Sequence record: NC_000866.4
Direction: 5' to 3' (one strand)
Source of the DNA: Escherichia phage T4
DNA: 64,000 nt
Shown here: piece by piece, positions 11,576-44,293 of the stretch
Layout of the letters: each line of letters opens with the position of its first letter
Numbering within the stretch: position 1 is the stretch's first letter
Notes under the pieces: generated by a model
Databases searched by the model: none
The model's input: only the letters and a program-made list of their open reading frames with translations
What the model was told of the DNA's origin: nothing
Position numbers and translations under genes: made by a program

Positions 11576-12325
11576 ATGGCAAACATTATTCGTTGTAAAT
11601 TACCAGATGGTGTTCATCGTTTTAAACCATTTACGGTAGAAGATTATCGAGATTTTTTGTTAGTTCGAAACGATATAGAACATCGGTCACCACAAGAACA
11701 AAAGCAAATAATTACTGATTTAATTGATGATTATTTTGGAGACTATCCGAAGACTTGGCAACCATTTATATTTTTGCAGGTATTTGTAGGGTCAATAGGT
11801 AAAACTAAAAGTACGGTCACATTTATATGTCCAAAATGTAAAAAAGAAAAGACAGTTCCATTTGAAATATATCAAAAAGAATTAAAGGACCTTGTTTTTG
11901 ATGTAGCTAATGTTAAAATTAAATTAAAGTTTCCTTCTGAGTTTTATGAAAATAAAGCAAAGATGATTACTGAAAATATTCATTCTGTTCAAGTAGATGA
12001 AATATGGTATGATTGGAAGGAAATTAGCGAGTCCAGTCAAATAGAACTAGTTGACGCCATCGAGATAGAAACATTAGAAAAAATTCTCGATGCAATGAAT
12101 CCTATTAATTTAACTCTACACATGTCATGCTGTAATAAGTACATTAAAAAATACACTGATATAGTAGACGTGTTTAAGCTATTAGTTAACCCAGATGAGA
12201 TATTTACTTTTTATCAAATTAATCACACACTCGTAAAAAGTAATTATAGCTTAAATTCAATAAGTAAAATGATTCCTGCCGAGCGCGGATTCGTATTAAA
12301 ACTGATTGAGAAGGATAAACAATAA
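11576..12325 (+). CDS. 51: Baseplate hub assembly protein gp51
   Basis: 249-aa ORF at T4 gene 51 position. Confidence 0.85.
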
Positions 12326-13500: not shown

Positions 13501-13978
13501 AGAAGTTTCTATTCCTAAAATGGGTCTTAAACATTATAACATTTTAAAAGATGTTAAAGGTCCTGATGAAAATTTAAAACTTCTCATTGATTCTATTTGT
13601 CCGAATTTATCACCGGCAGAAGTTGATTTCGTTTCTATTCATTTATTGGAATTTAATGGAAAGATTAAATCTCGTAAAGAAATAGATGGTTATACTTATG
13701 ACATTAATGATGTTTATGTATGCCAAAGATTGGAATTTCAATACCAAGGAAATACATTTTATTTTAGACCTCCTGGAAAATTTGAACAATTTTTAACGGT
13801 GAGCGATATGTTATCTAAATGCTTACTTAGGGTCAACGATGAAGTTAAAGAAATTAATTTTCTTGAGATGCCAGCATTCGTTTTAAAATGGGCAAATGAT
13901 ATTTTTACAACTTTAGCAATTCCTGGCCCTAATGGTCCAATAACTGGAATTGGCAATATTATTGGATTATTTGAATGA
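13445..13978 (+). CDS. 28: Baseplate hub distal protein gp28
   Basis: 177-aa ORF overlapping the end of gene 27 in another frame. Confidence 0.85.
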
Positions 13979-41180: not shown

Positions 41181-41204
41181 TTTCTTTTCTCCATTAGTTT
41201 TGAT

Positions 41205-41245
41205 AGGGTAATAGTATCACACTACTACCCTGATGTAAACTACTT
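41205..41245 (-). promoter_or_regulatory. T4-type early promoter
   Basis: minus strand GTTTACA, spacer, GATACTAT. Confidence 0.5.
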
Positions 41246-41641
41246 TTTGAAAGTTTTTCGCAAAAGTTCAATGATTTCATCTACATTGTTTTCGTCAACA
41301 ATGCAGTGAATTTTTGTTACGCCAGAAACCTTGTCTTTGACTTCATCTTCTTCAGAAGTCGGTTCTTTATATTCGCGGAAACAATAAAACTCTTCTTCAC
41401 TAAGTTCAAAATAATCATCACCCATACCATCATCATTATAGATTTCACCATTAGCACAAATGATTTCGGTTACATAATCAAAGCCATCTAAACTTGATAT
41501 TGATTTAACTTCAAACCAACCGCCATTTTCTTGAATGATGCCGACCATACTAGCATTTGATGAACTAATATCAATGAAAGATTTAATACGATGTGGATTT
41601 AACTCGTATTTTTTGCCGATTTCCATTTTGATTTTCCTCAT
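41240..41641 (-). CDS. hypothetical protein (frd.2 position)
   Basis: 133-aa acidic ORF. Confidence 0.6.
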   Translation of the reverse strand: MRKIKMEIGKKYELNPHRIKSFIDISSSNASMVGIIQENGGWFEVKSISSLDGFDYVTEIICANGEIYNDDGMGDDYFELSEEEFYCFREYKEPTSEEDEVKDKVSGVTKIHCIVDENNVDEIIELLRKTFKK

Positions 41642-41671: not shown

Positions 41672-41899
41672 TTATTGTTCAATCAGTCCCATGTAAAATT
41701 CTGCGTCTTCAGAATCCATGCCATCACAATATTCATTAGCCATAAAGCGGGTGAGGTCTTCAAGAGGACCTTCAATAACGATTTGAATACTCCAAAACTT
41801 AGAATCTTGCACGCTTGTGATACTAAGTTCAGGATAACGATTACGAATAATCTCTTCAATATATTCAAAATCAACGATGTCAATATCAACTTTAGCCAT
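41672..41899 (-). CDS. hypothetical protein (frd.3 position)
   Basis: 75-aa ORF. Confidence 0.55.
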
Positions 41900-41934
41900 A
41901 TTATTTTCCTCTTTAATTATTAGCAGTATTGCCG

Positions 41935-41995
41935 ATAGTTGTATAGTACCATAAAGCTTTATGCTTGTAAACCGTTTTGTGAAAAAATTTTTAAA
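41935..41995 (-). promoter_or_regulatory. T4-type early promoter with A/T-rich upstream element
   Basis: minus strand AAAATTTTTTCACAAAACGGTTTACA, 17 nt, TACTATAC. Confidence 0.6.
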
Positions 41996-42002
41996 ATAAA
42001 AA

Positions 42003-42021
42003 AGGGGACCTCTAGGGTCCC
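42003..42021 (-). terminator. Rho-independent terminator after gene 32
   Basis: GGGGACC-ctaga-GGTCCCC followed by UUUUUUAUUUU on minus strand. Confidence 0.7.
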
Positions 42022-42044
42022 CAATTAATTAGTAATATAATCTA

Positions 42045-42950
42045 TTAAAGGTCATTCAAAAGGTCATCCAGGTCCGTGTCATCAGCACTAGATGAACTAC
42101 CAGAGCTTGAGCTCATAAAATCATCTTCAGTTTTTGTATTGAAGTCATCAACATTGAATGCATCCAAATCATCAGCCACTTTATCAGCTTTCTTAGCAGC
42201 AGTTGCAGCAGCACCGCCCATCACAGCAGTTCCCATAACTTGACCGAATTTAGTATTAAGTTCTTCAAACGATTTGAATTTATCTTTAGAAGTCATTTCA
42301 GAAAGGTCAACCATTTGTTCGAACAGTTCTTTCTGGAAAGATTCATCGTCAATGTTTGGAATCGCAGATTGATTCAGGAATTTAGATTCATCGTAGTTAC
42401 TAAATCCAGAAACTTGTTTAACTTTCAGTACAAAGTTAGCACCTTCCCACGGACAAGTTACATCAACTGGAGTTTCACCCATTTCAACATCAACCGCAAT
42501 CATTGCATTGATTTTATCCCAGATTTTCTTACCAAAGCGGTATTTAAATACTTTACCTTCGTTTTCTGGAGCAGCTGGGTCTTTTACTACAAGAATGTTA
42601 GCCCAGTAAGAAGTTTTACGTTTAACAAGACTGTACTCTTTATTGTCAGTGTTGTATAGATCATTTTTACTGATGTATTGACATACTGGGCAAGAATCGT
42701 AATCACCATGGGTAGATGAACATGTTTCAATATACCATTTACCATTTTTCTTGAAACCGTGATTTACAAGAATTGCGAATGGTGCTTGTTCATCATTTTT
42801 AGACGGAAGAAAACGAATTACTGCTTGACCGTTACCCGCATTATCGAGTTTCAGTTTCCACTCGCCTTTATCTTCAGAAGAAAAACCTTTATTGCCATTC
42901 AGTTTAGCCATTTGTGCAGCGAGTTCAGCAGTAGATTTACGTTTAAACAT
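42045..42950 (-). CDS. 32: Single-stranded DNA-binding protein gp32
   Basis: 301-aa ORF recognised as T4 gp32 ([23 protein letters not shown]...; acidic C-terminal tail). Confidence 0.96.
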
Positions 42951-43010
42951 TTTTATTTCCTTTTTAATTTAATTTAATTAACAGTTGGTGCTATGACACT
43001 TTACCTCATA
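42951..43010 (-). promoter_or_regulatory. gene 32 translational operator (pseudoknot plus unstructured A/U-rich leader)
   Basis: minus strand GCUAUGAGGUAAAGUGUCAUAGCACCAACUGUUAAUUAAAUUAAAUUAAAAAGGAAAUAAAA-AUG. Confidence 0.75.
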
Positions 43011-43638
43011 GCTGGCATAATTCGCAATACTCTGGGTCTTCGAGAGGTATCCAACCTGAGTTGAAATACTTTACCATCGATTTAGCAGTTGTATCAGTTA
43101 TATTTATATTACCTTTAACTCTTCGCCATCCAGGAGTTTTACCGTACAGATTAGAGGATAATAATAACACATAATTCTCGTAAGCAATATGAGATAATTT
43201 CCAAGACTCTATATTAGCTCGTGATGTTTTCCAAGGTCTAAAATCGTCACGGTTCATATAATTAGCCAATCTCATATGCTCTCTAACTTCCGGGTCTTTG
43301 GCTGGATGAGTTTCACCACTCACACCAAATCCACCACCAGCATATACCAGATTAAAATAGTCTGGATTATCTCTGGCATTTACTTCAAGTTGGTATTTTC
43401 GTTCTGCTTCAATAACATCCAAGTCATCATCAATTTGAATTATTTTAACGCTCGGTTTTTGAAGCATTAGCGCATTCAAAAATCTTTTTTGTTTACATGA
43501 GCTCCAGTATTCCTTTCCGGAAGAGTCATATATTATTCCGTTCTCAAATGAGCAATTTAATTTACTACCGATATAGTAGTATGGCGGAGTCTTATTTTTG
43601 ACACGGTCTTCAAATGTAAACCAATATACTATATTCAT
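43006..43638 (-). CDS. segG: GIY-YIG-family homing endonuclease SegG
   Basis: 210-aa ORF, ATG verified, between genes 32 and 59; motif YYYIGSK. Confidence 0.7.
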   Translation of the reverse strand: MNIVYWFTFEDRVKNKTPPYYYIGSKLNCSFENGIIYDSSGKEYWSSCKQKRFLNALMLQKPSVKIIQIDDDLDVIEAERKYQLEVNARDNPDYFNLVYAGGGFGVSGETHPAKDPEVREHMRLANYMNRDDFRPWKTSRANIESWKLSHIAYENYVLLLSSNLYGKTPGWRRVKGNINITDTTAKSMVKYFNSGWIPLEDPEYCELCQL

Positions 43639-43639
43639 A

Positions 43640-44293
43640 TCAATACTTGCAAGATTTCACAGTTTCAATGAAAACATTTTTAGCTTTCTGTGAATCAATA
43701 TTTAAAATTTTTCTATAAGCCTTTAACTTTATAGAATAATTATTCCAGACTAAATTATCAGTCTGTTCATCATGTTTATCAATTATATTTAAAAACGAAT
43801 CAAGCAAGATAAACGTCTCAAACGAAATTATGTTCGATTGCAGAAGTTTAAAAATATAACTTGATTGAACTTTTGGATTATACTCAAAAATTTCTTTAAA
43901 AGCAGAAACTTCAACTTTTTTACTAAAATAATAAATGTTGCGAATATCTTCTTCAAACTTAAATTTAATTTGCTTTAAGCGTCCGATATATTCACGATAA
44001 AACACAAGTGCATCAGCGTCAGAGATGTCACCAATCCAAGCATCTTGGTTAGCAACCAAATTGCTTATAAAGATTAAAGCAAGTTCCTTTAATTTATATT
44101 TTTCTGATAACTTCTGGAAAAAATACTTATCCCTTCGCTTTTGATAAGCGGCATCAGACACCCGCATGCACCAATTATACTTAATTACATCATACTTTCC
44201 ATTCATATGTTGTTTTATCATTAAGTATAATTTATAAACTGATTTACCATCAATGTATCTTTCACCACCAGCAGGCATGCGGAGTTTAATCAT
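43640..44293 (-). CDS. 59: gp59 helicase loader
   Basis: 217-aa ORF recognised as T4 gp59. Confidence 0.92.
   Translation of the reverse strand: MIKLRMPAGGERYIDGKSVYKLYLMIKQHMNGKYDVIKYNWCMRVSDAAYQKRRDKYFFQKLSEKYKLKELALIFISNLVANQDAWIGDISDADALVFYREYIGRLKQIKFKFEEDIRNIYYFSKKVEVSAFKEIFEYNPKVQSSYIFKLLQSNIISFETFILLDSFLNIIDKHDEQTDNLVWNNYSIKLKAYRKILNIDSQKAKNVFIETVKSCKY

Follow-up and report, generated by a model that had tools for sequence, protein, structure and literature searches.

The question raised by the DNA directly upstream of gene 32 is whether its minus strand encodes a regulatory RNA, where that RNA begins and ends, and how widely its features are kept among related phages. The locus lies in the window analysed here, a stretch of 64,000 nucleotides from Escherichia phage T4 (NC_000866.4). 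The gene 32 operator of T4 has been a classic of autogenous translational control since the 1970s–80s, and the gene 32 pseudoknot of phage T2 was among the early RNA pseudoknots to have an NMR structure. A preliminary description, made from the raw sequence, had proposed that the segment holds such an operator, in the form of a compact pseudoknot followed by an unstructured A/U-rich tract. The minus-strand element 5′ of gene 32 is almost certainly the operator through which this phage T4 gene controls its own translation, with the repression mechanism itself taken from published T4 experiments.

The gene 32 locus

The features that surround the leader are the following, with coordinates given as positions of the window.

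41672..41899: frd.3, a neighbour as in T4
42004..42022, minus strand: an intrinsic terminator-like hairpin (GGGGACCCTAGAGGTCCCC followed by a T run), 23 nt 3′ of the gene 32 stop codon
42045..42950, minus strand: gene 32 (301 aa), the regulated gene, whose product gp32 is also the repressor (Pfam PF08804, E = 4.9e-67)
43021, minus strand: RNase E processing site at -71, known from the literature (PMC3014915), its coordinate computed from the ATG at 42950
43006..43638, minus strand: segG (ORF 32.1), a homing endonuclease gene, from its ORF and the T4 annotation
43101..43108, minus strand: TATAAATA, a candidate late promoter inside segG (-158 to -151 relative to the ATG of gene 32), by pattern match only
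43640..44293: gene 59, a neighbour as in T4

The product of gene 32 is annotated in T4 as a single strand DNA binding protein. The segG ORF matched no Pfam family at E ≤ 0.001. Sequence comparison of positions 42700–43300 gave 100% identity over 601 bases with Escherichia phage T4 OZ209023.1, and the gene 32 leader in the window is identical (100%) to the T4 leader that has been characterised experimentally. The motif TATAAATA is the T4 late-promoter consensus; its matches are not enriched in the window, with 13 found against 9.2 expected.

The 62-nt string on which the operator had been proposed occurs exactly once, on the minus strand, and the ATG of gp32 adjoins its 3′ end, so that its placement directly before the gene is right. 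Its extent had been given as 43010 to 42951. The end at 42951 holds, and the start does not, as the string really spans 43012–42951 (2 nt more).

The pseudoknot and the A/U-rich tract

A search of the leader for H-type pseudoknots of compact form (stem 1 ≥ 4 bp, loop 1 1–2 nt, stem 2 ≥ 6 bp, junction 0–1 nt, second loop 3–9 nt) returned exactly one site, starting at 43017. The structure occupies 43017–42990 of the minus strand (-67 to -40, 28 nt), which agrees with the published gene 32 operator, a pseudoknot of about 28 nt that starts 67 nt 5′ of the AUG (PMC535899, PMC3014915). The parts of the pseudoknot in T4 and of the tract that follows it are listed in 5′ to 3′ order.

43017–43014, minus strand: 5′ arm of stem 1, UGCC, pairing with GGUA at 43005–43002; within the segG frame and outside the coordinates first proposed
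43013, minus strand: loop 1, one A, invariant in 11/11 compact variants
43012–43006, minus strand: 5′ arm of stem 2, GCUAUGA; its last three bases, UGA (43008–43006), are the segG stop codon
43005–43002, minus strand: 3′ arm of stem 1, GGUA; it abuts the 5′ arm of stem 2 without a spacer (junction of 0 nt in 11/11 variants)
43001–42997, minus strand: second loop, AAGUG; 3–7 nt and variable in sequence in relatives
42996–42990, minus strand: 3′ arm of stem 2, UCAUAGC, pairing with GCUAUGA at 43012–43006, from covariation and hairpin folding
42989–42951, minus strand: unstructured A/U-rich tract ACCAACUGUUAAUUAAAUUAAAUUAAAAAGGAAAUAAAA (-39 to -1), ending at the ATG
42986–42981, minus strand: hexamer AACUGU, part of the tract and just 3′ of the pseudoknot; no other leader element is as well conserved across relatives

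Stem 1 of T4 has 4 bp, one of them G-U, stem 2 has 7 bp and loop 1 has 1 nt. The zero-base junction between the stems allows stem 1 and stem 2 to stack coaxially. A compact pseudoknot does exist at the place first proposed for it, and the string quoted for it is incomplete, containing stem 2 and only the GGUA arm of stem 1. Both UGCC (43017–43014) and the loop 1 A (43013) are omitted from that string, which by itself amounts to a 7-bp hairpin and the A/U tract. The sole fault of the earlier interpretation is this boundary, the 5′ end having been set 7 nt short (43010 against 43017).

The 3′ end of segG overlaps the 5′ half of the pseudoknot, and the five missing bases (UGCC and A) lie in the last segG codons. 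This overlap has been noted before (PMC535899). Megablast homology with phages that lack segG starts at query base 286, which is position 43015 of the window (minus strand), within the 5′ arm of stem 1. The segG insertion therefore has its boundary at the pseudoknot edge, which fits the suggestion that a pseudoknot was already present when the segG frame became extended into it (PMC535899). It has been reported that all gene 32 transcripts are cut by RNase E at -71 (PMC3014915), and a cut at this position would leave an mRNA starting 4 nt before the pseudoknot.

Between -39 and -1 the tract is 85% A+U, compared with 64% for the window, and contains three UUAAA and four UAAA motifs. Its UUAA(A) repeats lie at about 42981–42963, and the Shine-Dalgarno sequence AAGGA is at 42962–42958. 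On the minus strand of the window it is the only place with at least three UUAAA within 39 nt. Two UUAAA-dense spots on the plus strand (11890–11913 and 13520–13544) are inside long ORFs and were set aside as unrelated. The predicted minimum free energy of the tract is -1.3 kcal/mol (z = +0.12), no better than that of shuffles, and the tract is thus as free of structure as had been proposed. The published tract is likewise unstructured over more than 40 nt, with UUAAA/UAAA repeats and the ribosome-binding site included (PMC535899, PMC3014915), and has been described as the site of cooperative gp32 binding (PMC535899).

Folding energy and chance expectation

The stem 2 hairpin alone is stable at -7.5 kcal/mol (z = -4.3), with 0/200 shuffles as good. 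Nested folding of the leader yields this hairpin only. For the 91-nt leader the nested minimum free energy has a z of -0.28 and includes an unrelated 4-bp helix upstream, under a model that cannot represent pseudoknots. A crude energy for the pseudoknot, taken as stacking plus 9.0 plus 0.3 per loop base and without a coaxial bonus, comes to -7.4 kcal/mol against -7.7 kcal/mol for the hairpin, effectively a tie.

In its geometry the T4 pseudoknot ranks about fourth among the compact H-type candidates of the window (both strands, 128 kb). The top-ranked candidate, at 41238, was rejected as a pseudoknot, having been mis-scored by the scan; it is really a plain 11-bp hairpin. This hairpin (AGGGUAGUAGU ... 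ACUAUUACCCU) occupies 41204–41232 of the minus strand, in the spacer after an ORF at 41240..41641, and lies approximately 25 nt 5′ of a 23-codon hydrophobic ORF (MFAPYIMAAVMLVCLYLLIKAC).

A scan of 41900–43700 against Rfam with permissive E-values gave no family at or above its gathering threshold. The best matches over the leader, scaDm46E3 (19.8 bits against a threshold of 61) and DUF2815 RNA (18.0 against 41.2), have chance-level E-values, and the gene 32 operator appears to be without an Rfam model. The DUF2815 RNA match covers 42948–43006 (minus strand, E = 4) at a chance-level score, carried mostly by the UUAAAAAGGAAAUAA...AUG portion. The DUF2815 proteins are a separate family of phage single-stranded-DNA-binding proteins (PMC5686142).

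Because geometry and energy alone are not distinctive, the case for the pseudoknot rests on its position, on covariation and on published experiments. Energy modelling by itself does not establish the pseudoknot; comparison with relatives does.

Conservation in related phages

The sample for comparison consisted of 80 gp32 loci from viral contigs and 13 named phages. The T4-type architecture (loop 1 an A, junction of 0, stem 2 of 7 bp and stem 1 of 4–5 bp) was found in 11 distinct sequences, at positions between -57 and -81 from the gene 32 start. The carriers are T4 and T2; RB69, JS09 and EP32a (Mosigvirus); Gravdalen (Winklervirus); FBB1 (Roskildevirus); KEN37 (Jiaodavirus); MX01 (Dhakavirus); and four metagenomic phages. 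Comparable pseudoknot candidates are present in 22/39 gene 32 leaders, compared with 1.6% of control 130-nt windows from related loci (28/1704 with a candidate that equals or betters the weakest variant of gene 32). The control rate drops to 0.7% if a loop 1 of 1 nt and a zero junction are demanded.

Covariation was scored on an ungapped alignment (A2) that left out the variable portion of the second loop. This replaced a MAFFT alignment of whole pseudoknots (A1), which had placed gaps inside stem 2 for T2 and RB69. Across the 11 variants of A2, 94.7% of cells are paired, a percentage that is partly true by construction, as the variants were chosen by a scan requiring perfect pairing, and both partners vary in 10/12 pairs. 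Every cell of stem 2 (100%) is paired, with substitutions on both sides in five of its seven pairs. In stem 1 the four core pairs are intact in 11/11 variants, each of them double-changed in at least one variant, and the arms take the forms UGCC/GGUA, UGACC/GGUCA, AUACC/GGUAU, GUCC/GGAC, AUGCC/GGCAU, AGUC/GACU and ACCU/AGGU. The alignment has a covariation score of 0.759, compared with 0.248 for shuffles (0/500 as high), and a control in which the partners were slid by 1–3 columns left at most 43% of cells paired. Among the features that the scan did not impose are the enrichment in 22/39 leaders, the constant position, the conserved flanks, and the invariant A of loop 1 and junction of 0; the scan itself tolerated a loop 1 of 1–2 nt and a junction of 0–1. 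Covariation in related phages, on which the proposed operator had been made to depend, is therefore strongly present in both stem 1 and stem 2.

An enlarged variant occurs in three Acinetobacter-phage leaders (L024, L025 and Berthold, L091), with a stem 1 of 8 bp, a stem 2 of 7 bp, a loop 1 of 5 nt, a junction of 4 nt and a second loop of 9–13 nt. It is placed at about -90 to -40 from gene 32 in L024 and L025 and at about -91 to -37 in L091. Berthold shares with T4 the ACCAACUGUUAA flank on the 3′ side of the pseudoknot.

Other relatives do without the structure. No pseudoknot was found in the leaders of the COW86c-type phages (L005–L014), of L016, L019 and L021–L023, or of PSD2001 (Gaprivervirus), avDM10 (Biquartavirus) and Matisse (Slopekvirus), and no compact one was found upstream of any of 50 distant gp32 loci (approximately 40% gp32 identity). 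RB49 has been published as being without a pseudoknot (PMC535899, PMC3014915), and the pseudoknot-less genera found here extend that remark. As several relatives lack it, the pseudoknot is not required for the expression of gene 32 in general.

The DNA just 5′ of the pseudoknot also differs between phages. Within the 60 nt examined on that side, a TATAAATA box lies 4–5 nt 5′ of the pseudoknot in RB69 (L083), JS09, Gravdalen, L017/L018 and L020, and TATAAT lies 7–9 nt 5′ of it in T2 (L082), L015/L026, KEN37 and L024. With boxes at a fixed short distance, primary transcripts in these phages would start at or near the pseudoknot edge. In T4 the segG coding sequence stands in place of the promoter boxes, and a similar mRNA end results from the published RNase E cut at -71.

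Alternative explanations

A transcript that begins at the edge of the pseudoknot could carry it as a 5′-terminal protective structure, which would slow 5′-end-dependent decay of the mRNA besides or instead of serving as a repressor site. Such a role is possible, if rather unlikely. It would suit the reports that gene 32 mRNA exceeds all other T4 messages in stability and that its transcripts are all cut 4 nt 5′ of the pseudoknot (PMC3014915), as well as the promoter boxes just 5′ of the pseudoknot in relatives without segG, which are consensus matches only, within the 60 nt examined. A plain hairpin, however, would suffice to protect a 5′ end, and protection leaves the conserved single-A loop 1 and the adjoining repeat tract unexplained. 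The pseudoknot has moreover been reported as essential for gp32 repression (PMC535899). Protection of the 5′ end is compatible with the operator role and not a replacement for it.

The pairing itself could be read more sparingly, with only the 7-bp hairpin real and tied to the end of segG, for example as a processing or termination signal, and stem 1 a chance complementarity. Nested folding finds the hairpin alone, the T4 stem 1 is weak (4 bp, one G-U) and the crude pseudoknot energy is no better than that of the hairpin. Nevertheless this explanation is highly improbable: phages without segG (T2, RB69 and others) have the same structure, the arms of stem 1 vary together with the four core pairs never broken, the hairpin has no T run on its 3′ side, and an NMR structure of the T2 pseudoknot exists, as cited in PMC3014915. 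Least probable of all is an element acting at the level of DNA, a sigma-70-like promoter on the plus strand driving transcription antisense to segG. At 42993–43021 the plus strand does offer ATGACA and CATAAT separated by 17 nt, a 10/12 match with a TG extension that overlaps the pseudoknot DNA. Yet promoter-like matches in the region number 7 against 6.9 expected from shuffles, the hexamers sit in stem positions that are freely variable among relatives, and no gene lies downstream of such a promoter. The operator of gene 32, comprising the complete pseudoknot and the tract, is the reading retained here.

The AACUGU hexamer

AACUGU, usually in the extended form AACUGU(U/A)AA, is present in 28/33 distinct gene 32 leaders, some without a pseudoknot among them, against a background of 0.05 per 70 nt. 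Repeats of it occur upstream of gene 32 in L005–L014, L019 and L085. In phages whose genes 59 and 32 adjoin, three copies stand at the end of gene 59; the mean over its final 48 nt is 2.8, versus 0.3 where the two genes are separated, a comparison weakened by phage relatedness, as the abutting group is mainly one clade (with L019 and L021). In L085 the three copies (positions 353, 366 and 376 of a gene 59 CDS that ends at 390) each fall in a different reading frame, which points to selection on nucleotides rather than on protein.

It may tentatively be proposed, though the proposal is a doubtful one, that AACUGU forms a functional core in the leaders of gene 32, one that predates the pseudoknot, has a wider distribution and was previously unremarked. 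In the literature searched, no paper links AACUGU to gene 32 control. Possible roles are those of a sequence-specific determinant of gp32 nucleation or of a ribosome-recruitment element. In the whole window AACTGT occurs 64 times on both strands, against 39 expected from dinucleotide shuffles (0/100 reach 64), so that its mild enrichment extends beyond the gene 32 leader to this part of the T4 genome as a whole.

Comparison with known systems

The T4 gene 32 operator of McPheeters, Stormo & Gold 1988, as cited in PMC11262651 and reviewed in PMC3014915, has the same sequence and does not differ from the element described here. For the gene 32 pseudoknot of T2/T6, an NMR structure (PDB 2TPK) is cited in PMC3014915 and PMC6007934. 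T2 shares with T4 the stem 2 GCUAUGA/UCAUAGC, the single-A loop 1 and the 3′ flank ACCAACUGUUAAUUAAA. Its stem 1 has 5 bp (UGACC/GGUCA) and its second loop 7 nt, whereas T4 has 4 bp (UGCC/GGUA) and 5 nt, and it has one UUAAA unit fewer than T4. As T2 is without segG, its pseudoknot is fully intergenic. The RB69 operator combines a T4-like architecture with autorepression that has been shown experimentally, and either gp32 represses either leader (PMC535899). It differs from T4 in a compensated change of U-A to C-G in stem 2, a stem 1 of AUACC/GGUAU and a longer A/U tract.

Beyond gene 32, a parallel has been drawn with E. coli rpsO, in which the encoded protein, S15, represses its own translation through a leader pseudoknot (PMC3014915). 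The sequence and the protein are unrelated to those of gene 32. In the case of S15 the ribosome becomes trapped on a pseudoknot containing the initiation site, whereas gp32 spreads cooperatively on single-stranded RNA. The T4 gene 43 product (DNA polymerase) and M13 gp5 are, like gp32, replication proteins that double as mRNA-specific translational repressors (PMC535899, PMC3014915). For gp43 the operator is a simple hairpin, and nothing indicates a pseudoknot there (PMC3014915), and gp5 of M13, unlike gp32, acts on the mRNA of another gene, gene 2 (PMC535899).

Mechanism of repression

The leader RNA would fold into the H-type pseudoknot from -67 to -40, followed by approximately 40 nt of structure-free A/U tract running through the Shine-Dalgarno sequence to the AUG. 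Once free gp32 is in excess of single-stranded DNA, it would bind first at the pseudoknot. The bound protein would then spread cooperatively 3′ along the tract until the ribosome-binding site is covered and initiation is blocked. Binding of gp32 at the pseudoknot first, with cooperative spreading along the tract afterwards, has been described for this system, as has repression when gp32 exceeds single-stranded DNA, with both the pseudoknot and the repeats required (PMC535899, PMC3014915). The published support includes footprinting and repression assays, together with the NMR structure of the T2 variant (PDB 2TPK) as these sources report it (PMC535899, PMC3014915). The identity with T4, the pairing scheme, its compensatory conservation and a tract without predicted structure were obtained in the present analysis. 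The binding of gp32, nucleation at the pseudoknot, spreading and repression come from the published experiments on T4 and RB69.

The overlap with segG adds a condition peculiar to this arrangement. With the segG stop codon in stem 2, terminating ribosomes would melt that stem, and the T4 pseudoknot would probably form only on RNA free of ribosomes that are finishing segG. The operator would then be expected to act mainly on RNA cut by RNase E (-71, 43021).

Significance

The T4 gene 32 operator in the window is real, was correctly read from the raw sequence and is already known. The 100% identity with T4, the match to the published position and the strong covariation of both stems all uphold the interpretation as the gene 32 operator. 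As a finding it contains nothing new for T4; it shows that a reader of raw sequence is able to spot a real regulatory RNA. The survey of relatives, of modest value, shows that compensatory changes have preserved the pseudoknot in no fewer than seven named Tevenvirinae genera. The genera that lack the pseudoknot and carry AACUGU repeats bear on how gp32 is controlled in such relatives of T4, a question left by the papers of 2004 and 2010.
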